Virus genome (UHGV): UHGV-0141067
DNA: 14,271 nt
Source of the DNA: a virus
Direction: 5' to 3' (one strand)
In this document: in pieces, positions 47-14,220 of the stretch
Position numbering within the stretch: the stretch's first letter is position 1
Layout: the number at the start of each line of letters is the position of its first letter
The notes under the pieces: generated by a model
What the model was told of the DNA's origin: nothing
The model's database searches: none
Seen by the model: the letters and a program-made list of their open reading frames with translations, nothing else
Position numbers and translations under genes: made by a program

Positions 47-61
47 GCTTTTTTATACTAA
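47..61. other. attL: att core (lambda-type 15-bp common core GCTTTTTTATACTAA)
   Basis: Exact 15-bp lambda core sequence at 47-61. Confidence 0.9.
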
Positions 62-134
62 GTTGTCATTATAAAAAAGCATTGCTTATCAATTTGTTGC
101 AACGAACAGGTCACTATCAGTCAAAATAAAATCA
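62..134. promoter_or_regulatory. attL P' arm with Int arm-type sites and an IHF-like site
   Basis: Near-identical to the lambda P' arm as I recall it. Arm-type repeats CAGGTCACTAT (107-117) and CAGTCAAAAT (118-127) plus AAATCATTAT; IHF-consensus-like TATCAATTTGTTG at 86-98. Confidence 0.8.
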
Positions 135-1205
135 TTATTTGATTTCAATTTTGTCCCACTCCCTGCCTCTGTCATCACGATACTGTGATGCCATGGTGTC
201 CGACTTATGCCCGAGAAGATGTTGAGCAAACTTATCGCTTATCTGCTTCTCATAGAGTCTTGCAGACAAACTGCGCAACTCGTGAAAGGTAGGCGGATCC
301 CCTTCGAAGGAAAGACCTGATGCTTTTCGTGCGCGCATAAAATACCTTGATACTGTGCCGGATGAAAGCGGTTCACGACGAGTAGATGCAATTATGGTTT
401 CTCCGCCAAGAATCTCTTTGCATTTATCAAGTGTTTCCTTCATTGATATTCCGAGAGCATCAACATGCAATGCTGTTGGGATGGCAATTTTTACGCCTGT
501 TTTGCTTTGCTCGACATAAAGATATCCATCTACGATATCAGACCACTTCATTTCGCATAAATCACCAACTCGTTGCCCGGTAACAACAGCCAGTTCCATT
601 GCAAGTCTGAGCCAACATGGTGATGATTCTGCTGCTTGATAAATTTTCAGGTATTCGTCAGCCGTAAGTCTTGATCTCCTTACCTCTGATTTTGCTGCGC
701 GAGTGGCAGCGACAGGGTTTGTTGTTATATGGCCTTCAGCTATTGCCTCTCGGAATGCATCGCTCAGTGTTGATCTGATTAACTTGGCTGATGCCGCCTT
801 GCCCTCGTCTATGTATCCATTGAGCATTGCCGCAATTTCTTTTGTGGTGATGTCTTCAAGTGGAGCATCAGGCAGCCCCCTCCTTATTGCTTTAATTTTG
901 CTCATGTAATTTATGAGTGTCTTCTGCTTGATTCCTCTGCTGGCGAGGATTTTTTCGTAGCGATCAAGCCATGAATGTAACGTAACGGAATTATCACTGT
1001 TGATTCTCGCTGTCAGAGGCTTGTGTTTGTGTCCTGAAAATAACTCAATGTTGGCCTGTATAGCTTCAGTGATTGCGATTCGCCTGTCTCGGCCTAATCC
1101 AAACTCTTTACCCGTCCTTGGGTCCCTGTAGCAGTAATATCCATTGTTTCTTATATAAAGGTTAGGGGGTAAATCCCGGCGCTCATGACTTCGCCTTCTT
1201 CCCAT
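135..1205 (-). CDS. int: Site-specific tyrosine integrase (lambda Int)
   Basis: 356-aa ORF beginning MGRRRSHERRDLPPNLYIRNNGYYCYRDPRTGKEF, recognised as lambda Int; ATG start; lies next to the P' arm; overlaps xis as in lambda. Confidence 0.97.
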   Translation of the reverse strand: MGRRRSHERRDLPPNLYIRNNGYYCYRDPRTGKEFGLGRDRRIAITEAIQANIELFSGHKHKPLTARINSDNSVTLHSWLDRYEKILASRGIKQKTLINYMSKIKAIRRGLPDAPLEDITTKEIAAMLNGYIDEGKAASAKLIRSTLSDAFREAIAEGHITTNPVAATRAAKSEVRRSRLTADEYLKIYQAAESSPCWLRLAMELAVVTGQRVGDLCEMKWSDIVDGYLYVEQSKTGVKIAIPTALHVDALGISMKETLDKCKEILGGETIIASTRREPLSSGTVSRYFMRARKASGLSFEGDPPTFHELRSLSARLYEKQISDKFAQHLLGHKSDTMASQYRDDRGREWDKIEIK

Positions 1206-1401
1206 TTCTGATCCTCTTCAAAAGGCTACCTGTTACTGGTCGATTTAAGTCAACCTTTACCGCTGATTCGTGGAACAGATACTCTCTTCCATCCTTAACC
1301 GGAGGAGGGAATATCCTGCATTCGCGCACCCATCGACGAACTGTTTCAAGGCTTCTTGGACGTCGCTGGCGTGCGTTCCACTCCTGAAGTGTCAAGTACA
1401 T
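1183..1401 (-). CDS. xis: Excisionase (lambda Xis)
   Basis: 72-aa ORF MYLTLQEWNARQRRPRSLETVRRWV..., recognised as lambda Xis; 3' end overlaps the int start. Confidence 0.95.
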   Translation of the reverse strand: MYLTLQEWNARQRRPRSLETVRRWVRECRIFPPPVKDGREYLFHESAVKVDLNRPVTGSLLKRIRNGKKAKS

Positions 1402-1426
1402 CGCAAAGTCTCCGCAATTACACGCA

Positions 1427-1449
1427 AGAAAAAACCGCCATCAGGCGGC
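1427..1449 (-). terminator. Putative intrinsic terminator (minus strand) just upstream of xis
   Basis: Stem ccgcc/ggcgg (1435-1449) with loop atcag; A-run 1429-1434 on the plus strand gives a U-tract after the stem on the minus-strand transcript. Confidence 0.5.
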
Positions 1450-1620
1450 TTGGTGTTATTTCAGTTCTTCAATTCGAATATTGGTTACGTCTGCATGTGC
1501 TATCTGCGCCCACAGCATCCAGTGGTCATAGCAGTCGTTGATGTTCTCCGCTTCGATAACCCTGTTGAATGGCTCTCCATTCCATTCTCCTGTGACTCGG
1601 AAGTGCATTTATCATCTCCA

Positions 1621-1645
1621 TAAAACAAAACTCGCCGTAGCGAGT
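1621..1645 (-). terminator. Putative intrinsic terminator (minus strand) downstream of the 132-aa gene
   Basis: Stem aactcgc/gcgagtt (1628-1645) with loop cgta, followed on the minus strand by a TTTTGTTTT tract. Confidence 0.5.
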
Positions 1646-1708
1646 TCAGATAAAAGAAATCCCCGCGAGTGCGAGGATTGTTATTCACCTTTGACGGCAA
1701 GTTGCAGG

Positions 1709-3619: not shown

Positions 3620-4353
3620 TGGACTGCCTCCTGGCGGTCTATGCGTTCAATTTCGGCCAGAATAAGTGCGCCAGCTTTCACCAGGTCACGGCGTGGATTT
3701 GTCGGCTTCCACCATTCTGGTGTCCACGGCCAGTCAAATGGAATGCGGTTAAATGGATGGATGGCATTCAGTACGTAGCATGAGGATGCCCACAGTAACT
3801 GCGATTTGCTGTACTGGTCATCATGCTCAGGCGTCCATCCCTCAGCTGATTGATGGCGTTGACGCTCTGCAATTACTGACTGAACGGCATTGGATAGCGA
3901 TTTCACACCCTGCGCACGCACTTCAGCCAGGAAAGCATCGGTGGCTGGGGTTTCTGGAATGGCGTCTGGAATAACCTCTGAGTAGACGCGTTCCATTGCC
4001 GACTCCCATCCGTAGTAACAAGCCGAATAGCCGTCGCGCTGGTAGCCGTGGTCTTCAACTCCACATCCCATGCCCTGGTCATGGTATTCAGGCTGATTGT
4101 CGGGATTAATGCAGTATTCAATGACCGACTTCATCCCCGCATTCTCCGCTGCCAGCGCAGTGCACTTGGCCTCAAGGTTATCAATCGTGATTCCAGCAGA
4201 ACGACACTCCCGCAACGCCGTTTCTAGTTTTGATTCAAGTTCACCGAACTTACGGACAAGATATTCAGCGTTTGTTTCGTTAACCTTTAAATCTCGTGGG
4301 ATGCATTTACCTTTCAGAAAACCATCCATCTCAATTAGTGACATTTGTTTCAT
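3616..4353 (-). CDS. Hypothetical phage protein (Trp-rich C-terminal region)
   Basis: Track ORF 3616..4371 begins at a GTG; an in-frame ATG at 4353 has a GGAG-containing Shine-Dalgarno upstream. Stop overlaps the downstream gene start. Confidence 0.7.
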
Positions 4354-4514
4354 TTTTTCCCACTCCGCCACATCGCATTCAGATGTTTGTTTTGATTTAC
4401 TGACGGAAAAGAATTTCTCTTAAGCAATTCCTCTCTCGATGGCATTGGCTTTACGCGTTGGCGAATAATCATTTCTGCCGGAAGAATGCCGGGATTGTAT
4501 GCAAGTCCTCTCAT
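4350..4514 (-). CDS. Small hypothetical protein (54 aa)
   Basis: ATG at 4514 preceded by a GAGGA Shine-Dalgarno; the longer 115-aa track ORF overlaps the upstream gene and is probably an over-extension. Confidence 0.45.
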
Positions 4515-4524
4515 GGTAAATTCC

Positions 4525-4821
4525 TCAGTCATTACTGATAGCGCCATAGCGTGAGCGGTAATTACGCAGGCGCGGGTCGATATATTCAGGGAAGTGGGTA
4601 TATGTGGCTTTGCGGAATGGTCGGATTGATGTCTGGTAAATTCGCTCGCGTTCTTCTTTCTCTGCAAGCCATATACAATGGCGAAATTCCTTTTCATCTT
4701 TCGTTTCCTGCGGTAGAGACATTATCTGGTCGTAGTTTTTCCTGAATTTATCCAGCACCTCCGATACGGAATTGCCGGAACAGCGGCGCGGGTCATCCGC
4801 ACCATACTGAGGCGCTGGCAT
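4525..4821 (-). CDS. Hypothetical phage protein
   Basis: 98-aa ORF with ATG start preceded by AGGAGA; tightly packed in the leftward operon. Confidence 0.7.
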
Positions 4822-4834
4822 GATTTTCTCCTGA

Positions 4835-5314
4835 TTAAATTGCGTGAATAGCGTGACGAGGGAAGGGGAGAGTTACTGGCTCCTCGTCTGGGTAGATAGG
4901 TTTGTTATGTTTGTGCCACTCGACATGACATGACTTGCAGAGCCACATCACATCGGTTGGTTTACTGTAGTCGCAGTGGTGCGCCTGTGGTTTACATTCT
5001 GATCCGCAGCACTCACATTGTGGTGGTCGGATTAGCTTACCGTCGCGCAAAAAATTACCCACAATGATGTGGGCTTTTCTTTTCCATGGGTTGCTCTGAA
5101 TGAACCGATTTTTGGCTGCGTTACACCGTTCTCTTCCGCGTTCCGATGATTGATATTCTCTCCTTGCTGATACTCGATGTGGCAATCCAGCGCGTTCTTT
5201 GTCGTATTCAGCCAGGCAAGCCCGGCAAGCGGCAGTTAATCCATCTCTGGATGCTCTTCTGATTTGAAAGTCCCTTTCTTCCTTCTGTTGATGGCATCTT
5301 GAGCAGATTTTCAT
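4835..5314 (-). CDS. HNH-family endonuclease
   Basis: 159-aa ORF with ATG start and AGGAG Shine-Dalgarno; C-terminal CECCGSECKPQAHHCDYSKPTDVMWLCKSCHVEWH fits an HNH/zinc-finger nuclease motif. Confidence 0.8.
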   Translation of the reverse strand: MKICSRCHQQKEERDFQIRRASRDGLTAACRACLAEYDKERAGLPHRVSARREYQSSERGRERCNAAKNRFIQSNPWKRKAHIIVGNFLRDGKLIRPPQCECCGSECKPQAHHCDYSKPTDVMWLCKSCHVEWHKHNKPIYPDEEPVTLPFPRHAIHAI

Positions 5315-5323
5315 ATTCAGCTC

Positions 5324-5797
5324 CTAGAACGGAATATCCGAATCGTCGAAGTTCATAGGTGGTTCGCTGTGATCCCCCTGCTGCTGAGGTTGCTGTCTTT
5401 GTTGCTGACCGCTATTTCGCTGAGGAGAAGACTGTTCATTGCCTCCTTGCTTGCCACCAAGCATTTGCATGGTTCCACCAACGCCCACGATGACTTCGGT
5501 AGTGAACCGATCCTGTCCGCTTTGATCCTGCCATTTTCTTGTCCGCAATTTGCCTTCAAGATAAACCTCAGAGCCTTTTCGCAGATATTCGCTGGCAATT
5601 TCTGCCAGTTTCCCGCTCATTACCACGCGGTGCCACTCCGTCTGCTCCTTTTGCTCTCCAGTTTGCTTATCACGCCATTGTTCTGACGTAGCAACTGTAA
5701 GGTTTGCAAATGCCGTTCCTGATGGTGAATATCTGATTTCTGGATCATGCCCAAGGCGACCAATAATGATCACCTTATTTACGCCTCTGCTTGCCAT
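5324..5797 (-). CDS. ssb: Single-stranded DNA-binding protein
   Basis: 157-aa [19 protein letters not shown]...; OB-fold SSB pattern, Gly/Gln-rich linker and acidic tail ending DDSDIPF. Confidence 0.93.
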
Positions 5798-6505
5798 TTA
5801 TGCCGCCTGTTTTAGTTCGTTAACTCTGATGTTCATTACCTGAACGCATTTAGCCTGCGCCTCCTCGTTGCCAGCCATTAATTGCCAGTCACGCTGATAA
5901 CGCTCGATGAGTTTTTTCTTGTCAGTTTCTGTTGACGCATAATCGCTGAAGTCTTTCAGGATTTGTTCGCAGTCAACCGATGGAGATTTCTGGTTGATAT
6001 TTTCTGGTGATGGTTTGTTATCTGATGCTGGGATTGCCCATCCCGGAAGCGATGGAGGGAGCCAGTAAAATCCTGTTCCATCTTTCAGTTTTGCCCTGTG
6101 CCATCCCTGCTTTTTATCGAGAGATGTTTGTGCGAAACCTTCCTCAAGGTTATACAGATACCGACCGATTCCCCACTGAACGGCAGCGCGCTTCATTGCA
6201 CCGGAACGACCACCTTTGACGGCTTCTACCTGCGTGTTTTCAGCAGCATCCCATTTGGTTACCCATTCGGAATCAATCTTGATTGATATGCCGCATTCAA
6301 CTCCGCCGTTGTTGGGAATATCGCGGTATTCATTGCGCCATCCTGCTTTGCCGCAAACATCGTCCAGGCGTTTCATGATTGCCCGGTTCGTGACATAAGC
6401 CAGCACCATAGCCCACACCTTGCCATCGCGTGTTTTACCGCTTTGCTGTATTCGCCATTCGATATCTTCAGGGCTGAATGGCTCATCGAATTTATTCAAA
6501 TCCAT
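5798..6505 (-). CDS. Rad52-family single-strand annealing protein (recombinase)
   Basis: 235-aa ORF with ATG start and GAGGTG Shine-Dalgarno; stop overlaps the ssb start (TAAATG); central region (...GGRSGAMKRAAVQWGIGRYLY...) looks like the Rad52/Sak annealing fold; occupies the bet position. Confidence 0.8.
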   Translation of the reverse strand: MDLNKFDEPFSPEDIEWRIQQSGKTRDGKVWAMVLAYVTNRAIMKRLDDVCGKAGWRNEYRDIPNNGGVECGISIKIDSEWVTKWDAAENTQVEAVKGGRSGAMKRAAVQWGIGRYLYNLEEGFAQTSLDKKQGWHRAKLKDGTGFYWLPPSLPGWAIPASDNKPSPENINQKSPSVDCEQILKDFSDYASTETDKKKLIERYQRDWQLMAGNEEAQAKCVQVMNIRVNELKQAA

Positions 6506-6513
6506 AATTCACC

Positions 6514-6702
6514 TCAGAATGGTAATTCGGATGGGGAGGAAAGAAATTCGCGCTCATTCATGCGCTCTCTTTGTGCTTGCCATAAACAAAGTTGTTTCTT
6601 TGATTTATCTCCCGCTTTACGCCAGTAACGAGCCTCAGCAATGTGATATTCTCTTTTTAATCGACTTAACTCTGGAGTTTTCGCCAGCTCTACCGGAATC
6701 AT
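6514..6702 (-). CDS. Small hypothetical protein (62 aa)
   Basis: ATG start preceded by GGAGG; start overlaps the kil stop (ATGA). Confidence 0.55.
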   Translation of the reverse strand: MIPVELAKTPELSRLKREYHIAEARYWRKAGDKSKKQLCLWQAQRERMNEREFLSSPSELPF

Positions 6703-6812
6703 TTAGACCTCCATTTTCTGTAGGCTTCGACGGCCTCACGAAACATCTTTTCATCGCCAATAAAAGTGGCGATAGTGAATTTAGTCTGAATAGCCATAAG
6801 TGTTTTATCCAT
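6699..6812 (-). CDS. kil: Kil-like host cell-division inhibitor
   Basis: Contains MDKTLMAIQTKFTIATFIGDEKMFREAVEAYRKW, matching my recollection of lambda Kil; start placed at the internal ATG (6812) because the longer 67-aa track ORF would run through the cIII 3' end. Confidence 0.65.
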   Translation of the reverse strand: MDKTLMAIQTKFTIATFIGDEKMFREAVEAYRKWRSK

Positions 6813-6951
6813 TTTTTGGAACTCTTGGCTGATTAAGTACGTCGATGAGTCGTTTCCATCCGTCACGTAATTTACGGGTGATTCGTTCAAGTAAAGATTC
6901 ATTTAGTTGGAAGGCACCCATGCGAGCGCCTCCCGCGATTGCGTAAATCAT
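6805..6951 (-). CDS. cIII: CIII-like protease inhibitor (48 aa; absent from the ORF track because it is under 60 aa)
   Basis: Hand translation gives MIYAIAGGARMGAFQLNESLLERITRKLRDGWKRLIDVLNQPRVPKNG; the ESLLERITRKLRDGWKRLID core matches lambda CIII as I recall it. Confidence 0.8.
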   Translation of the reverse strand: MIYAIAGGARMGAFQLNESLLERITRKLRDGWKRLIDVLNQPRVPKNG

Positions 6952-6975
6952 GGGTGGTTCCTTATGTTGGTTTTA

Positions 6976-7944
6976 TTAGTAGGTTATTTTTGTTGCGAAT
7001 ACTTCGCCTTTTACGATGGCTGTTATGATATTTTTAGCAACATCTTCTGATGCGCCAACCTTGATAAGGTCAGCAAGTATTTTGTTATTTACTTCTTTCC
7101 GGTGAGCTTTATCCTTTGCTCTACGCTCTTCTTCTTCCTTGATTCTTTTTTCTTCTGCTATTCTGGCTTGCTCTTTTGCTTCAGCCTCGCGCCGGATTCG
7201 TTCAGCCTCCTCCTGTGCTTTTCGGCGTTCTGCTTCAATTGCCGCCTGCTTTTCTCTTTCAGCTCGTTCTGCTGCCTCTTTTGCTTCGCGCTGTGCTCGT
7301 TGCTCGGCTTCAATGCGTTCACGCTCTGCACGTTCCGCTGCGGCCTTAGCTTCTGCTTCTCGCCTTGCTGCTGATTCAATTTCGGCTTTTGCCTTTGCTT
7401 CGGCTTCTGCTCTGGCTTTCTCTTCAGCTTCTCTTTTTAAGCGTTCTTCATGCTCTCGCTTTTCCTGCTCCGCTTTGAGTCTTGCCTCTTCTCTTTGGCG
7501 GTCAAATTCGCGATCCATCAAAATAGCTATTTCATGATCAGACTCAATTTGCTTTGCGAGAGCTTCAGCTGCTGCCTTAGCTTCTTCTTCGGCTTTAATC
7601 CGCGCCTGTTCCTCCTCATAATCAGTAAGAGGCTGGCGAGCCTTGGCTTTCAGTTCATCAAGGCGATCGCGCACTGTCTTGCGGTTGGCATCAATTAGCT
7701 TTGGAATTTCCTTCAGTTCAGCAACAAGGTCTTTGCCAAGACCATCGAGATATGTTTTCGTCTGCGCAACTTTATACGCCAGAGAAGCGATCTCCTTTCT
7801 GCCCTTTGCCGTTGTGATATCAGGCACAAAGGACATAACTTCACGTTCAACCTTTTGAAGGATTTCTTCAATCTGGTCTGCAGACTGAAATACAGTCATT
7901 GCATTTGCTTTTTCAATAAAAACTAAGTCTGTTACTTCACTCAT
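6976..7944 (-). CDS. Phage protein with a long Glu/Ala/Arg/Lys-rich helical (coiled-coil-like) central region
   Basis: Track ORF 6976..7998; start moved to the ATG at 7944 (MSEVTDLVF...), which follows a GGAGG Shine-Dalgarno. About 150 aa of low-complexity EAKA/ERAE repeats. Confidence 0.75.
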   Translation of the reverse strand: MSEVTDLVFIEKANAMTVFQSADQIEEILQKVEREVMSFVPDITTAKGRKEIASLAYKVAQTKTYLDGLGKDLVAELKEIPKLIDANRKTVRDRLDELKAKARQPLTDYEEEQARIKAEEEAKAAAEALAKQIESDHEIAILMDREFDRQREEARLKAEQEKREHEERLKREAEEKARAEAEAKAKAEIESAARREAEAKAAAERAERERIEAEQRAQREAKEAAERAEREKQAAIEAERRKAQEEAERIRREAEAKEQARIAEEKRIKEEEERRAKDKAHRKEVNNKILADLIKVGASEDVAKNIITAIVKGEVFATKITY

Positions 7945-7956
7945 ATATCCTCCATC

Positions 7957-7983
7957 AAAAAAATCGCCCTCACATCGGAGGGC
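7957..7983 (-). terminator. Putative intrinsic terminator (minus strand) between the 70-aa gene and the coiled-coil gene
   Basis: Stem gccctc/gagggc (7966-7983) with a 6-nt loop, followed on the minus strand by a T7 tract (plus-strand A-run 7957-7963). Confidence 0.5.
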
Positions 7984-8078
7984 AAAGAAGATTTCCAATA
8001 ATCAGAACAAGTCGGCTCCTGTTTAGTTACGAGCGACATTGCTCCGTGTATTCACTCGTTGGAATGAATACACAGTGC

Positions 8079-8291
8079 TTATTCGCGAGCTTTGAGCATG
8101 GCATCAGCAATAAAGTAGGCATCATCTGCTAATTCTTTGTACTGTGGTGAATTCTGTCCACCGCCAAAGGAATGTCCGTCCCATCTGCGCACTATTGCTG
8201 CCATAGCCTTAGCAGCGAAGTAATCACGTAATGTCGCATCACTTGCCATTTCTGGGCGTTTGATATCTGCTTCATAAAACTCGCACATCAT
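8079..8291 (-). CDS. Hypothetical phage protein (70 aa)
   Basis: ATG start with GGGAGGTGA Shine-Dalgarno; start overlaps the upstream stop. Confidence 0.6.
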   Translation of the reverse strand: MMCEFYEADIKRPEMASDATLRDYFAAKAMAAIVRRWDGHSFGGGQNSPQYKELADDAYFIADAMLKARE

Positions 8292-9809: not shown

Positions 9810-10142
9810 TCAATCGTAATAAGCTGGAATTGATTTTCCGCGTTGCTTCTGGCGGCCTGAGCAGGTCAACCCCATTTCACTGCGTGGCTTGCTGTACCAT
9901 GTGCGCTGATTCTTGCGCTCAATACGCTGCAGGTTGCTTTCAATCTGTTCGTGGTATTCAGCCAGCACCGTAAGGTCTATCGGATTCAGTGCGCTTTCTA
10001 CTCGTGATTTCGGTTTGCGATTCAGCGAGAGAATAGGGCGGTTAACTGGTTTTGCGCTTACCCCAACCAACAGGGGATTTGCTGCTTTCCATTGAACCTG
10101 TTTCTCTGCGCGACGTTCGCGGCGGCGTGTTTGTGCATCCAT
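9810..10142 (-). CDS. N: Antitermination protein N (lambda-like)
   Basis: 110-aa ORF MDAQTRRRERRAEKQVQWKAANPLLVGVSAKPVNRPILSLNRKPKSRVESALNPIDLTVLAEYH..., matching lambda N including the Arg-rich boxB-binding motif. Confidence 0.96.
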   Translation of the reverse strand: MDAQTRRRERRAEKQVQWKAANPLLVGVSAKPVNRPILSLNRKPKSRVESALNPIDLTVLAEYHEQIESNLQRIERKNQRTWYSKPRSEMGLTCSGRQKQRGKSIPAYYD

Positions 10143-10410
10143 CTGGATTCTCCTGTCAGTTAGCTTTGGTGGTGTGGTGGCTGGTAGTCTAGCTCCAGCT
10201 TGTTGAGTCTCATTCGGAGGGGTATAACCGGCACCCCAGCGATTTTTCCATGCGACAACGTGCGCGTTATGGCGGCCTTATCGCCCGCGGCTCCCCATCT
10301 CGTCCACGCTATTGCTAGCGTTGGGAGCGCTTCACCGCTCAACAGTAGGTAAGCACTTGCCAGTGACTAGCTGGCTTCACCACACCCCAAAGCCTTCTGC
10401 TTTGAATGCT

Positions 10411-12024: not shown

Positions 12025-12669
12025 ATGACATACGAAAATGACAAATTCCAGGTTCTGAAGAGCATGAAGGTGCCAGATGATTTTAAATCAAATGGCTTTG
12101 TTTATGTGCTTTCTAATGAGTGCATGCCAGGAATTTATAAGATTGGGATGACTAAGCATTCACCAGAAGTTAGGGCTAAAGAAATTTCAGCCTCTACTGG
12201 CGTTCCTAAGCCATTTAAGGTGATAGCAGCCTTTCATTCAAATAATCCCGCATCAGATGAAAAACTCATTCATAAAGCCTTTGCAAAAGAGAGGCTTAGT
12301 GATAATCGAGAGTTTTTCAAGCTTGAAGATAATGAGCTTTCTGAATCTCTAAATGAAATAAGGGCGCTGGTTGGCCCTGAAAGAAATGGCGAGACGGCAG
12401 AATACGCAATTTACGACTCATTCATTTCTTTTCGCCATGAAAATGAGCTTGATCTTAATGAGGAGCTTATAGAGCAAGGTCTGGGTAGTGTAGTTGGTCA
12501 TCTTCCTGCGGTGAAAAATTTCCTTATTCGCGCCGGAATTGATTACGCGAAGCAACTGATAAGCAAATATAACTCATCGATAGTTATTAATACAGATGGC
12601 AGTGTGGTGATGGTTAAGTCTCTTGAAGCCCAATGCTTTGATGCGGAGGTTGGAAATGAGCCTGGCTGA
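12025..12669 (+). CDS. T5orf172 (GIY-YIG-like) domain protein; AT-rich insert between cII and O
   Basis: 214-aa ORF with ATG start after a CAGGAG Shine-Dalgarno; N-terminal GFVYVLSNECMPGIYKIGMTKHSPEVRAKEISASTGVPKPFKV...NREFF fits the T5orf172 domain pattern as I recall it; C-terminal ~100 aa unassigned. Confidence 0.8.
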   Translation: MTYENDKFQVLKSMKVPDDFKSNGFVYVLSNECMPGIYKIGMTKHSPEVRAKEISASTGVPKPFKVIAAFHSNNPASDEKLIHKAFAKERLSDNREFFKLEDNELSESLNEIRALVGPERNGETAEYAIYDSFISFRHENELDLNEELIEQGLGSVVGHLPAVKNFLIRAGIDYAKQLISKYNSSIVINTDGSVVMVKSLEAQCFDAEVGNEPG

Positions 12670-13498
12670 AGTATTTTACCTGTCGAAGAGTGAACCTGTT
12701 GAACAGGAGCGAAGAGTGGCTGATATCGATGATGGTTACACCAGATTCGCTAACGAGCTGCTGGAAGCTATCGCAAGTGCTGATTTAACCGCTCGCCAGT
12801 TGAAAGTTATGCTGGCCTACGTCCGGAAAACATATGGATTCAATAAGAAAACAGATCGAATAGCCGATGAGCAAATTGCTCAGTTAACAGGACTGTCAAG
12901 GCAGAATGTTAACAAGGCTAAAAAAGAACTGATTTCAATGAATTGCCTGTTTATGGATGGAAATCAAATCGGTGTAAACAGTGAGGTATCTGCGTGGCAA
13001 TTCAGCAAGTGTCTCCAAGTTAGCAACTTTGTCTCGAAGTTAGAGACAAAAAATGTCTCCAAATTAGAGACACTCAATGTCTCGAAGTTAGAGACACACA
13101 AAAGACATTCTTTAAAGACAAAAGAAAATATTAATAAACCCCCTATATCCCCCAAAAAAGTTTCTCAGAAGTTCGACCCGCTAGAAACAGAGTTGCCTGA
13201 TTGGTTATCAGCAGAAACATGGTTGTCGTGGGTTACCTATCGCAAGGAGATAGGTAAGTCGATCAAGTCTAAGCAAAGTGTCACTCAGGCTATCAACGTT
13301 CTAAGCAGAAGTCTGGAGAAGGGATATACACCTGAAGAAATTATAAACCAGAGCATCGCCAGTGGTTGGCAGGGGATTTTTGAACCCAAGACTCCAAAGG
13401 GGAAATCTCAACCGAGGCCGCAGCAGCGAGCTATGCAGGAAAACTTTGCCGCCAAAGATTACGGGCAAACTGAAATGCCTTCATGGGCGCAGGAGTGA
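12656..13498 (+). CDS. O: Replication initiator O (lambda O-like, with internal origin)
   Basis: Start at the ATG at 12656 (GGAGG Shine-Dalgarno); N-terminal ...QERRVADIDDGYTRFANELLEA...RQLKVMLAYVRKTYGFNK aligns with lambda O as I recall it; the iteron region translates as SKLETKNVSKLETLNVSKLET. Confidence 0.9.
   Translation: MSLAEVFYLSKSEPVEQERRVADIDDGYTRFANELLEAIASADLTARQLKVMLAYVRKTYGFNKKTDRIADEQIAQLTGLSRQNVNKAKKELISMNCLFMDGNQIGVNSEVSAWQFSKCLQVSNFVSKLETKNVSKLETLNVSKLETHKRHSLKTKENINKPPISPKKVSQKFDPLETELPDWLSAETWLSWVTYRKEIGKSIKSKQSVTQAINVLSRSLEKGYTPEEIINQSIASGWQGIFEPKTPKGKSQPRPQQRAMQENFAAKDYGQTEMPSWAQE
13010..13096. repeat. Replication origin iterons (four ~19-bp repeats TGTCTC-N7-GAGACA-like) inside O, followed by an A/T-rich tract
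   Basis: Iterons at about 13010-13027, 13030-13048, 13054-13072 and 13078-13096 with ~24-bp periodicity; AT-rich region 13097-13165; same architecture as lambda ori. Confidence 0.8.
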
Positions 13499-13500
13499 AT

Positions 13501-14220
13501 ATGAATACGACAAATGGTTACAATCTGGCACTGCAAAGGCAACTTGTAGACTCAAAAATCAATGACATTTCTGATCTGAAACAGAAACTTGAGTTTAGCA
13601 AAATTGGATCAGCATCAGATGGAATGTCAGTTACCAGCACAGTGGAAGAGTGCGAGAAACACGGTAAATATACTTCCTATGAGAAATATCTGACCATCTC
13701 AGGAAAAAGAATTACTTCAAGTAAATCTGAGTGCCCACAGTGCCTTGAGGAGAAAATTCGTAAGAAAGAGATTGAACGTGAGCAGGCAGAACAAAGAGCA
13801 AGACAATCAAAAATTGAATATTTGTTGAATTCTCTCAATATTCCAGAGAGGTTCAAAAATTGCACTCTTCAGAATTATGAGCCTGTTAACGATGATGCAA
13901 AGCGAGTTCTTAAGGTATGCCAGGCATATGCCAGTAAGTGGCCTGAACGCCTTCAGAAAGGTGGCGGACTGGTCATGTGTGGTAAGCCTGGAACTGGAAA
14001 GAACCACCTTGCACTGGCTATCGCTAGGCACGCCATTATCGAGCATCAAAGCTCTGTGATATTTACCACTGCGTTGAAAATTGCCAGAGAGTACAAATCA
14101 ACATGGTCTAAGGCCGCAACCAGAACTGAAGAAGAAGTCATTAGGCAATTTACGCATCCTGACTTGTTAATAATCGATGAGGTTGGCGTGCAGTTCGGCA
14201 GTGATGCTGAAAAGCTGTAA
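13501..14220 (+). CDS. DnaC-like AAA+ helicase loader (replication protein); C-terminus possibly truncated
   Basis: ATG at 13501 after AGGAGTG, overlapping the O stop; Walker A GKPGTGKNHLA and Walker B LLIIDEVG; the ORF ends only 14 aa after Walker B. Confidence 0.8.
   Translation: MNTTNGYNLALQRQLVDSKINDISDLKQKLEFSKIGSASDGMSVTSTVEECEKHGKYTSYEKYLTISGKRITSSKSECPQCLEEKIRKKEIEREQAEQRARQSKIEYLLNSLNIPERFKNCTLQNYEPVNDDAKRVLKVCQAYASKWPERLQKGGGLVMCGKPGTGKNHLALAIARHAIIEHQSSVIFTTALKIAREYKSTWSKAATRTEEEVIRQFTHPDLLIIDEVGVQFGSDAEKL

Follow-up and report, generated by a model that had tools for sequence, protein, structure and literature searches.

A lambdoid Rec module of the Sf6/ES18 type with a chimeric Rad52/Erf annealase and an optional HNH-like gene

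In phage lambda, gam, bet and exo lie downstream of cIII and kil. What takes this place in a partly lambda-like genome without homologs of them, and do all the genes found there belong to one recombination system? The question is raised by a 14,271-nucleotide stretch of virus genome UHGV-0141067, hereafter the window. A sequence-only reading had proposed that a Rad52-family annealase, an SSB and an HNH nuclease gene replace exo, bet and gam. The module does occupy the gam-bet-exo place downstream of lambda-like cIII and kil; overlooked was abc2, the analog of gam. The proposal of a one-off module swap in lambda did not hold, as the proper comparator is the P22/Sf6/ES18 family of Rec modules. 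We consider it very probable that the window carries an intact lambdoid Rec module of the Sf6/ES18 type, working by Abc2-RecBCD resection, SSB and annealing by the annealase (SAP).

Organization and distribution of the module

The genes follow the order cIII, kil, orf62, SAP, ssb, HNH-like ORF and abc2 in the early-left (pL) operon (Table 1). An ORF check found SAP, ssb and the HNH-like ORF on the minus strand where they had been placed, the last next to ssb at 4835-5314. The unit is larger than had been claimed, as it includes abc2, 13 nt after the HNH-like ORF, and orf62, 8 nt upstream of SAP. A Shine-Dalgarno-like sequence precedes each gene, the gaps read off the sequence are 0-13 nt (9 nt between ssb and the HNH-like ORF), and the packed genes are probably translationally coupled. 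The supposed TAAATG overlap of SAP and ssb is a direct abutment, in which the TAA at 5800-5798 is followed by the ssb ATG at 5797-5795 with a 0-nt gap. Scanning 4300-8200 for promoters and terminators gave no more than shuffled sequence would yield (6 terminator-like sites, where 4.7 were expected), and the GC profile showed no compositional island at the HNH gene. A separate O-type/DnaC-type replication module lies at 12623-14220.

Table 1. Features of the early-left block in the window
Feature	Coordinates	Strand	Description
cIII	6805..6951	(-)	48 aa, lambda-type FtsH inhibitor; 75% aa identity to lambda CIII
kil	6699..6812	(-)	Host septation inhibitor; Pfam Lambda_Kil E 4e-21
orf62	6514..6702	(-)	Conserved small ORF, 62 aa; phrog_1723 E 1.6e-33
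SAP	5798-6505	(-)	235 aa, Pfam Rad52_Rad22
SAP N-terminal core	6056..6505	(-)	Residues 1 to ~150, predicted Rad52/Sak-type single-strand annealing domain
SAP C-terminal domain	5801..6037	(-)	Residues 157-235, homologous to P22 Erf C-terminal domain
ssb	5324..5797	(-)	157 aa, bacterial-type SSB; PF00436 E 1e-38
HNH-like ORF	4835..5314	(-)	159 aa, beta-beta-alpha-Me zinc-finger nuclease candidate; optional cassette
Shared tail PVTLPFPRHAIHAI	4838..4879	(-)	14 residues closing the HNH-like ORF
abc2	4525..4821	(-)	Anti-RecBCD protein; Pfam PF11043 (Anti-RecBCD_p2) E 8e-61

At the upstream edge of the block common to Sf6, Bas106 and ES18 stands cIII, and homologous loci (L001-L003) have a CIII annotation at this position. 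The Lambda_Kil match falls on residues 32-62 of a long mechanical ORF (6699-6902); the true start of kil is probably the ATG at 6812 (MDKTLMA...) rather than the first ATG of that ORF, and a kil of 114 nt is called at the homologous place by PGAP and by phage annotations. The kil/cIII segment (6710-6900) is 93% identical to lambda DNA. An otherwise lambda-like backbone had been proposed, and this is true only of that segment, of 47-1684 (att-int-xis-orf55), of 9886-10189 (N) and of short nut segments; it fails elsewhere. The product of orf62 is identical (100%) in Bas106 and in Escherichia coli PI24 and 66-68% identical in ES18 and epsilon34, and it is possibly an accessory recombination factor. 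Homology of orf62 to P22 Arf was considered and dropped, as BLASTP detects no similarity between the two and their likeness is positional only.

The best overall relative of the window is the P22-like phage CurroJimenez_Bas106 (72% coverage, 99.4% identity). The seven-gene block is present in this viable phage and in the E. coli PI24 prophage at ~98-99% DNA identity over 100% of the 2.5-kb query, and genes 25-32 of Sf6 match at 98% identity over 86% of the query, leaving the kil/orf62 stretch uncovered. Of the 5426 complete E. coli genomes searched, 392 (~7%) have the SAP gene. The ES18 type of Rec module has been defined by an anti-RecBCD protein, SSB, nuclease and SAP, and occurs in 25 of 325 lambdoid phages (PMC12315714, Genome Res 2025). 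In the window, abc2, the HNH-like ORF, ssb and SAP are contiguous downstream of cIII-kil, which is the arrangement of that type.

A Rad52-type core joined to an Erf C-terminal domain

The 235-aa protein had been read as a Rad52/Sak-like annealing protein, and it is one, with annealing activity predicted from its family and modeled fold. It matches Pfam Rad52_Rad22 (PF04098) at 91.9 bits against a cutoff of 20.3 (E 5e-26, far above chance), with residues 4-136 aligned to profile positions 7-153 of 153. The same family is carried by all 120 SAP homologs listed. Its predicted structure has the Rad52 N-terminal fold, a beta-beta-beta-alpha core with hairpin, and its best structural match is the Sak of phage 80alpha. 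Searches against sequences of solved structures, with the single sequence and with a profile of 28 sequences, found neither RAD52 nor Sak and returned only sub-threshold matches to a PRP40 WW domain (E 0.08-0.14); it is therefore by Pfam and by its predicted fold that SAP is assigned to the family.

The HMM check that had been suggested thus succeeds for Rad52_Rad22 and fails for ERF. SAP has no PF04404 (ERF) match, whereas P22 Erf matches this family at E 4.6e-46. Only SAP residues 157-235 are Erf-like, being 63% identical to residues 134-205 of P22 Erf (E 2e-30), a stretch that lies mostly C-terminal to the PF04404 match in P22 Erf (residues 5-146). By sequence comparison, SAP is a chimera of a Rad52/Sak-type core and the P22 Erf C-terminal domain, and the "Erf-like" label given to it by PHROG and GenBank stems from the latter. 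The mosaic nature claimed for the element therefore holds and extends to the annealase itself, which had been missed. Such a swap of the Erf domain onto a different annealing core has already been published.

The C-terminal domain consists of a disordered linker and then a three-helix bundle (predicted helices 179-192, 196-209 and 214-234), and is presumed by analogy to bind a partner. It is 35% identical to the C-terminus of an ERF-family SAP at the deeply diverged locus L013. A phmmer search with the 80-residue domain recovered 17 representatives, mostly fragments and too few to map its distribution; the full-length proteins among them have, by Pfam, both Rad52_Rad22 and ERF cores. Since the same Erf-type C-terminal domain is found on two annealing cores, it offers a clean system for asking what the C-terminal domains of annealases bind. 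In the window, P22 and L013 it is accompanied by Abc2 or a protein like it. A role as strict Abc2 adaptor was rejected, because the Abc2 of HK620 pairs with a Sak4 that lacks the domain.

The SSB and a shared 15-residue tail

The adjacent protein was likewise correctly taken for a phage SSB with an OB fold, and here sequence sufficed, no structure prediction being required. It matches TIGR00621 at 181 bits against a 54-bit cutoff and the solved enterobacterial SSBs 7f2n and 1eqq at E ~1e-63/1e-64, and residues 1-116 are ~80% identical to crystallized OB domains (1eyg, 7f2n). A disordered Gly/Gln/Pro linker follows, and the acidic tip ...NFDDSDIPF forms the true C-terminus, unlike in the SSBs of HK75 and epsilon34, which run 15 residues past the IPF tip.

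In modules without the HNH-like ORF, the DNA for this tail (PVTLPFPRHAIHAI) is a 3' extension of ssb beyond the IPF tip. Among 120 viral contigs with the tail, it is carried by the SSB in 96 and by the HNH-like ORF in 23, counts obtained with a back-translated pattern in which the peptide is fixed and which therefore cannot measure nonsynonymous variation in the tail. In the model of the HNH-like protein the tail region (residues 145-159) has low pLDDT. A 15-residue tail that most related modules place behind the IPF tip of SSB, and the window on the HNH-like ORF, may be an undescribed feature. The GenBank note on Sf6 gene 26 ("14 contiguous amino acids identical to E. coli SSB") was considered as an annotation error and this was rejected, since the note describes the tail shared with prophage SSBs.

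A diverged SSB (L019) ends in a similar tail, ASVGLQYGRHRIYAL, after DDEIPF. It is identical to A/E-PVTLPFPRHAIHAI at 7/15 residues but at only 21/48 nucleotides of DNA, which may be a sign of selection on the peptide.

An optional HNH-like gene between ssb and abc2

The N-terminal part of the HNH-like ORF has a CxxC...CxxC ribbon and a helical region, and its C-terminal motif reads CxxC-HHxD-...-CxxCH-xxWH. No Pfam HNH family was matched by this protein or any of 35 homologs at E <= 0.1, nor was there an NCBIfam match or a PDB sequence match, even at relaxed thresholds across the 35 homologs; among PHROGs only phrog_2340, "endonuclease," matches. On its motif and on weak structural matches it is a candidate beta-beta-alpha-Me nuclease with predicted activity, here called HNH-like.

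The gene is an optional cassette of SAP-ssb-abc2 modules. It is present in 98 of the ~392 E. coli genomes with SAP, about a quarter of the modules, and ssb is followed directly by abc2 in 202. The contents of the slot vary: it may be empty, or hold a DnaQ-like exonuclease, both genes, or, in ES18, an unrelated HNH_3 nuclease. Sporadic presence with a precise boundary is the pattern of a homing-type gene, and both were found, the boundaries being known to within ~30 nt. The protein had been described as either the nuclease of the module or a free-standing homing-type endonuclease, which is a fair statement of the two readings.

The protein may be a working part of the module, i.e., an SSB-linked nickase or endonuclease that would make or process ends or nicks for SAP and SSB, either as Exo does or together with Abc2-RecBCD; this is a real possibility that we hold tentatively. 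Homologs of 35-50% identity lie immediately downstream of ssb with three recombinase families: Rad52-type (L009-L012), ERF-type (L013-L015, L019-L020) and Sak4/AAA_24-type (L016, L018). The ORF is tightly packed between ssb and abc2, and its catalytic and zinc motif varies little or not at all among the 35 homologs. Modules of the SSAP-ssb-HNH kind also occur in Firmicute phages (PMC8093625), and a survey in 2025 rated the ES18 HNH a likely legitimate module member (PMC12315714). Yet the gene is evidently dispensable, given its frequency among the E. coli genomes and its presence in only 23 of the 120 tail-bearing viral contigs, and given a slot that may stand empty or be filled by other nucleases. 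Moreover, the homologs L017 and L021/22 are not near any recognizable recombination gene, and resection would already be supplied by Abc2-RecBCD.

The other reading, that of a selfish homing-type cassette that has invaded the 3' end of ssb and plays no part in recombination, is tenable, and our confidence in it falls short of even. The gene is sporadic among near-identical modules, and HK75 and L010, which share an ssb allele background, differ by a clean indel: identity is 59-60/60 nt per bin from nt 60, stops ~27 nt before the ssb stop, and resumes in the 15-codon tail and abc2 (160/168 nt). The SSB tip is recoded, reading MNFDDEIPF-stop in nuclease-bearing alleles as against MDFDDDIPF-A... 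in empty ones, as would be expected of a disrupted or immunized target site. Two HNH variants that share only 47% identity end in the same tail, and unrelated HNH_3 genes sit at neighboring junctions (between SAP and ssb in L010, upstream of ERF in L019, in the ES18 slot, and in 7 of 120 viral contigs). The survey authors also urged caution, HNH genes being mobile (PMC12315714). On the other hand, the gene stays linked to ssb in homologs as distant as ~35-40% protein identity and in modules with SAPs of three families, which is long-lived for a purely selfish element, and the cleavage site and homing are putative. In the window, furthermore, the HNH gene accompanies another ssb allele, whose product has 67% aa identity to the HK75 SSB; the exchanged unit here is the ssb allele plus the HNH gene and not the latter alone.

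A further idea is that the family is no random passenger but a nuclease coupled to SSB, which accompanies ssb through modules of the Rad52, ERF and Sak4 types, with A/E-PVTLPFPRHAIHAI as a portable functional partner-binding tail. We think this improbable. If it were true, a tail past IPF should mask the terminal Phe carboxylate required by host SSB-interacting proteins; with the HNH cassette, the free SSB tip would be restored and the tail passed to the nuclease, and the cassette would thus switch the contacts of the phage SSB with host and phage partners.

Abc2 and the proposed mechanism

Abc2 matches PF11043 at 202.7 bits against a cutoff of 25 and along its whole length is 91% identical to P22 Abc2, whose Pro68 (the PpiB site) it retains; the roles of the RecC-binding helices and of Pro68 come from PMC9836394. 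abc2 is the functional counterpart of lambda gam. In the P22 model, Abc2 binds RecC and reprograms RecBCD into a resection nuclease (PMC9836394), and the HNH-like protein thus need not be the nuclease of the module.

For the intact Sf6/ES18-type module, we propose a mechanism in which each biochemical step is modeled on characterized homologs, and in which gene identities, folds, order, spacing, conservation and distribution are direct observations. As judged from P22, Abc2 would bind the RecC of host RecBCD, which would lose Chi response and RecA loading and keep its helicase and 5'-nuclease; the altered enzyme would resect phage DNA ends to give 3' ssDNA. By its family assignment the phage SSB would coat this ssDNA, and the Erf-type three-helix domain may bring SAP onto it. 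Its partner may be either or both of the ...DIPF tip of SSB and the Abc2-RecBCD complex, as suggested by the analogous cases of the Red-beta C-terminal domain and HK620 Sak4/SSB: an annealase C-terminal domain binds both its exonuclease partner and the SSB tail (PMC11611040), and a neighboring SAP is stimulated in a manner dependent on the SSB C-tail (PMC5928155). This role is proposed purely by analogy, and HK620 Abc2 works beside a Sak4 without the domain. SAP would then anneal the ssDNA to a complementary strand; likely outcomes would be circularization of terminally redundant DNA, fork annealing and recombination-dependent replication. The HNH-like protein would be an accessory, dispensable nuclease cassette linked to ssb.

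It seems rather unlikely to us that SAP and SSB act mainly in the replication of phage DNA (recombination-dependent or fork-associated) instead of in Red-like recombination. DNA replication of the phages 80alpha and phi11 requires a matched pair of Sak or Sak4 with its cognate Ssb (PMC5499656), and 80alpha Sak is the closest structural match of SAP; but the window has its own O-type/DnaC-type replication module, and P22 cannot do without erf only when the host is recA or recJ (PMC5499656). The two roles are not mutually exclusive. A decaying, non-functional prophage remnant, which might be read from an HNH-like ORF left unannotated by PGAP in RefSeq E. coli genomes and from ssb-HNH and HNH-exonuclease fusion or fragment products in the protein database (P0131, P0134, P0145, P0171), is largely refuted and hardly credible because all seven ORFs are intact, at 94-100% protein identity to the isolated plaque-forming Bas106 and mostly 97-99% to Sf6 (where the cIII/kil/orf62 stretch is more diverged), and int, xis, N, cI, cro, cII and O are intact in the window as well.

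Significance and comparison with known systems

The module is already known, being catalogued in Sf6 and ES18, and the observation is correct but ordinary. Modules of this type have been sequenced since Sf6 (2004) and ES18 (2005), and were catalogued in 2025 (PMC12315714); that survey names the SSB-1 of Sf6 and ES18 and the HNH of ES18 as module members, and reports the Sf6/ES18 proteins as being without experimental study. Our results mainly confirm textbook lambdoid mosaicism, in which the early-left recombination module is one of ~13 known interchangeable types. The SAP/SSB(/Abc2) set is of modest practical value as a natural, E. coli-adapted and experimentally uncharacterized Rad52-type recombineering system. 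The SSB tail extension, the boundaries of the HNH cassette with the recoded SSB tip, and the regular position of this HNH family behind ssb are small testable leads and not discoveries.

Sf6 and Bas106 are like the window in genes, order and spacing, and their SAP, SSB, HNH-like and Abc2 proteins are 94-100% identical to those of the window. Sf6 differs in having two small ORFs (genes 29 and 30) where the window has orf62, and in Bas106 an additional gene, for a DnaQ-like 3'-5' exonuclease, separates the HNH gene from abc2. The int/xis and N that accompany the block in the window are of lambda type and not those of Sf6 or Bas106. ES18 shares the functional composition and the early-left position, with SAP 97% identical at the N-terminus and 82% in the C-terminal domain, SSB 89% and Abc2 74%; its nuclease gp47, however, is an unrelated HNH_3/T7 gp7.7-like protein. 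The deeply diverged L013 keeps the same order, with an ERF-type SAP bearing an Erf-like C-terminal domain, an SSB, an HNH homolog and a 93-aa protein similar to the C-terminus of Abc2; the Abc2-like protein of L013/L019 scores below the Pfam threshold (18.7 bits vs. 25).

P22 (c3-kil-arf-erf-abc1-abc2) has its recombination genes at the same operon position after c3-kil. Besides the close match of Abc2, Erf and SAP share 63% identity in their C-terminal domains, and the logic is presumably the same, i.e., Abc2-modified RecBCD with a ring-forming annealase. The annealing cores differ, being PF04404 ERF in P22 and PF04098 Rad52_Rad22 in the window, and P22 has abc1 and arf but neither ssb nor a nuclease gene, its Arf being unrelated to orf62.

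The HK620 Sak4-SSB-Abc2 module and the staphylococcal Sak/Sak4-Ssb(-HNH) modules resemble the window in having an annealase next to a cognate SSB, and in them the SSB C-terminal tip is needed for stimulation of the annealase. As in the window, abc2 lies downstream in HK620, and an HNH gene follows ssb in the staphylococcal phages. These modules differ in their recombinase family (Sak4 being RecA-like), in SSBs that are only distantly related to the bacterial protein, and in an HNH gene of another family, HNHc_6.

Lambda Red (gam-bet-exo) holds the same syntenic place downstream of cIII-kil and comprises the same triad of an anti-RecBCD protein, a Rad52-superfamily annealase and a source of 5' resection, yet none of its genes is homologous to a gene of the window module. 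Gam blocks RecBCD, whereas the Abc2 of the window would reprogram it. The window module lacks a dedicated 5'-3' exonuclease and encodes its own SSB, and its anti-RecBCD gene stands at the distal end, in contrast to the proximal end in lambda Red.

The recombination module and its genomic setting

Three ORFs, for the single-strand annealing protein (SAP), the SSB and an HNH-like protein, were recovered on the minus strand where the sequence-only reading had placed them, and the module indeed occupies the syntenic position of lambda gam-bet-exo. The claimed TAAATG overlap was not found: the SAP stop codon (5800-5798) abuts the ssb start codon (5797-5795). The HNH-like ORF follows ssb after 9 nt, and a Shine-Dalgarno-like sequence can be read ahead of every gene of the packed cluster. 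A lambda-like backbone had also been proposed, which holds for three segments and for short nut-region pieces, the only other lambda-like DNA in the window, but not elsewhere, the best overall relative being the P22-like phage CurroJimenez_Bas106 (coverage 72%, identity 99.4%). With lambda identity confined to a few segments and Bas106 as its best relative, the element is therefore a typical lambdoid mosaic, as had been suggested.

Similarity to lambda sets in at base 47, where the attP core of lambda begins, thus bases 1-46 are probably host flank; judging from this sequence match, the window probably starts at a prophage end integrated via a lambda-type att site. Just upstream of cIII lies the gene for a highly charged, Glu/Ala/Lys/Arg-rich, coiled-coil-like protein, a homolog of Sf6 gene 33 named “cell envelope biogenesis protein TolA” by PGAP; it matched no Pfam family, and its PHROGs matches are only of unknown function. 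An ORF for a T5orf172/MUG113 (GIY-YIG-like) domain protein, possibly a moron, is flanked by cII and the O-type replication gene, overlaps the start of the latter, and is present in Bas106 too by overall similarity.

Coordinates of features in the window and in homologous loci (L-handles)
Feature	Position	Strand	Remark
att core, int, xis, orf55	47-1684		lambda-like, 98.8% identity
kil/cIII	6710-6900		lambda-like, 93% identity
N	9886-10189		lambda-like, 97% identity
SAP	5798-6505	-	235 aa
ssb	5324-5797	-	157 aa
HNH-like ORF	4835-5314; L003:9687-10166; L008:3264-3743	- (window)	159 aa
orf62	6514-6702	-	62 aa; stops 8 nt ahead of SAP gene
abc2	4525-4821	-	98 aa; start 13 nt past HNH-like ORF
Tail sites	4838-4879; L005:3140-3187; L007:3102-3149; L019:3515-3562	- (window)
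WW-like segment of SAP	6014-6121	-	residues 129-164
Protospacer in SAP gene	6326-6357	-	spacer at L144:1501-1533
Coiled-coil-like protein	6976-7998	-	340 aa
T5orf172/MUG113 protein	12025-12669	+	214 aa
HNH_3 genes	L010:3060-3527; L019:1979-2446; L006:3097-3618

A chimeric annealase with its own SSB

SAP residues 4-136 match Pfam Rad52_Rad22 (E 5e-26; 91.9 bits, cutoff 20.3 bits), and neither ERF nor RecT was matched in the same Pfam search. The AlphaFold2 model of the protein, with 28 homologs as input, has a mean pLDDT of 85. Residues 157-235 share 63% identity with the C-terminal domain of P22 Erf, the N-terminal core of which falls in PF04404, a Pfam family other than that of the SAP. As judged from these matches, the annealase is a chimera of a Rad52-type core and a P22 Erf-type C-terminal domain. 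Carriage of the Erf domain accounts for the annotation “Erf-like” in GenBank and PHROGs, and the chimera has been described previously as an Erf “domain swap” (PMC2629481). The neighboring protein is a bacterial-type SSB (PF00436, E 1e-38; TIGR00621, 181 bits) ending in ...NFDDSDIPF, and the OB fold expected of it is borne out by ~80% identity to crystallized enterobacterial SSB OB domains. The reading of the pair as annealase and SSB therefore survives on both counts, annealase-family membership and OB fold.

Past the Rad52 core, ahead of the linker, the SAP carries a WW-domain-like signature (W135 ... W156-x-x-P159, two short strands predicted). Matches to the PRP40 WW domain are sub-threshold (E 0.08-0.14), W148, P151, L153, P154, W156 and P159 are invariant among the 28 homologs, and the likeness could be due to chance. 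Separately, a 32-nt spacer in a type I-E CRISPR array of E. coli JNE151685, located between queE and downstream genes, is 100% identical to part of the SAP gene, where an ATG PAM adjoins the protospacer; the match shows directly that CRISPR has targeted this module in the past.

Annealase and SSB had been read as standing in for exo, bet and gam. A gam analog was overlooked: the product of abc2 matches Pfam Anti-RecBCD_p2 (E 8e-61) and shares 91% identity with P22 Abc2, Pro68 among the conserved residues. Abc2 binds RecC, and in the current model RecBCD becomes a Chi-blind resection machine passing ssDNA to the phage annealase (PMC9836394). Since Abc2 is encoded, the module has a gam analog and need not rely on the HNH protein for a resection nuclease. 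If Abc2 acts as its P22 homolog does, RecBCD-Abc2 would resect the phage ends, the phage SSB would coat the ssDNA produced, and the Rad52-type ring, once loaded, would anneal complementary strands. The Erf-type C-terminal bundle may act as the loading adaptor, because the Red-beta C-terminal domain, likewise small and helical, binds both the exonuclease that it works with and the final residues of SSB (PMC11611040), and HK620 Sak4 requires the last six residues of the neighboring SSB (PMC5928155). We infer this whole scheme, from resection to annealing, for the window's proteins by analogy.

The HNH-like protein

No curated HNH model in Pfam or NCBIfam and no PDB sequence matched the HNH-like protein. 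Across 35 homologs (to ~35% identity), C100xxC103, H112-H113-x-D115, P119, C126xxC129-H130 and H134 vary little or not at all, and the motif residues lie on a strand-strand-helix unit in the model (pLDDT 93). Because of this conservation and placement, an HNH fold is favored, and the protein is likely, though unproven, an HNH-type nuclease. The ORF is not annotated by PGAP in any RefSeq E. coli record sampled, and the GenBank entry for phage N7 omits it as well; with its conservation, strong RBS and confident predicted fold, the gap in annotation looks systematic.

The protein may be a working component of the recombination module, at somewhat less than even odds. Homologs at 35-50% identity lie directly after ssb in modules with Rad52-type SAPs (L009-L012), ERF-type SAPs (L013-L015, L019-L020) and Sak4/AAA_24 recombinases (L016, L018). 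At L013 the order is a SAP with an Erf-like C-terminal domain, SSB, HNH and a small protein similar to the Abc2 C-terminus, a match that is sub-threshold in Pfam. Analogous SSAP-ssb-HNH modules of Firmicute phages (PMC8093625) also argue for membership. That the gene is instead a selfish cassette is an equally serious possibility, again falling a little short of an even chance. The gene is dispensable and sporadic among modules; the ssb-abc2 slot is variably empty or occupied by this HNH gene, by a DnaQ-like exonuclease or by both, and in ES18 by an unrelated HNH_3. In other modules HNH_3 genes separate SAP from ssb (7/120 contigs, and L010) or precede the ERF gene (L019). Boundaries are sharp, such that ssb of HK75 and L010 agrees at 59-60/60 nt per bin from nt 60 to a point ~27 nt short of the ssb stop codon, and identity resumes from the tail on (160/168 nt). 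Nuclease-bearing alleles have a recoded tip, ...MNFDDEIPF-stop, and empty alleles read ...MDFDDDIPF-APVTLPFPRHAIHAI-stop. Aligned with HK75, the window shows 98-100% identity in the SAP gene and only 58-86% (DNA) in ssb, and identity is back in the tail and abc2; on this alignment, the exchanged unit in the window is larger than the HNH gene alone. Sequence alone favors neither reading.

These unrelated HNH_3 genes (T7 gp7.7-like, homing-type) thus occupy several junctions of the same Rec modules; L010, L019, L006 and 7/120 viral contigs (e.g., L045) are the examples. The modules look like hot spots at which nuclease genes insert. In four public protein entries (P0131, P0134, P0145, P0171), part of the HNH protein is joined to SSB or to an Rv2179c-like exonuclease, which points to deletions or frameshifts fusing neighboring slot genes in some prophages.

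A tail shared by SSB and the HNH protein

The HNH protein ends in 14 residues that equal the extension after the SSB IPF tip in HK75, epsilon34 and the majority of related modules, and the DNA is identical too. Among contigs carrying the tail, its coding sequence is on SSB in 96/120 viral contigs and on the HNH ORF in 23/120. Where it is on SSB, as in HK75 and epsilon34, the IPF tip is not terminal and runs on as APVTLPFPRHAIHAI; the distant SSB of L019 has a similar 15-residue tail, ASVGLQYGRHRIYAL, with divergent DNA. An SSB with a non-C-terminal IPF should bind host SSB-interacting proteins poorly, given what is established about SSB-Ct recognition. The tail could be a functional extension not yet described, or could mask the C-terminal interaction tip of SSB. 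No paper containing the peptide was found in the literature; the identity behind it was seen in 2004, according to a GenBank note on Sf6 gene 26. Of the whole locus, only the tail, peripheral to the module finding, may be undescribed, and it offers a small, testable side lead.

Comparison with known modules

The observation is confirmed and the module is already known; the earlier interpretation is right in its core and incomplete. The right comparator is P22, with the layout c3-kil-arf-erf-abc1-abc2, and its relatives, rather than lambda alone. Among 325 lambdoid phages, a survey published in 2025 recognized 13 functional Rec-module types, among them the “ES18 type” (anti-RecBCD, SSB, nuclease and SAP; 25 phages) and, without nuclease, the “HK75 type” (27 phages); it named the Sf6 and ES18 SSBs “SSB-1” and judged the ES18 HNH and epsilon34 DnaQ nucleases likely legitimate module members, with caution about HNH mobility (PMC12315714). 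Of 5426 complete E. coli genomes, 392 carry the SAP gene, 98 the HNH gene and 202 the HK75-type junction, with abc2 directly after ssb. Sf6 genes 25-32 are ~98% identical to the seven-gene block (86% of the 2.5-kb query aligned), and Bas106 and several E. coli prophages carry the block at ~99% identity across the whole 2.5-kb query.
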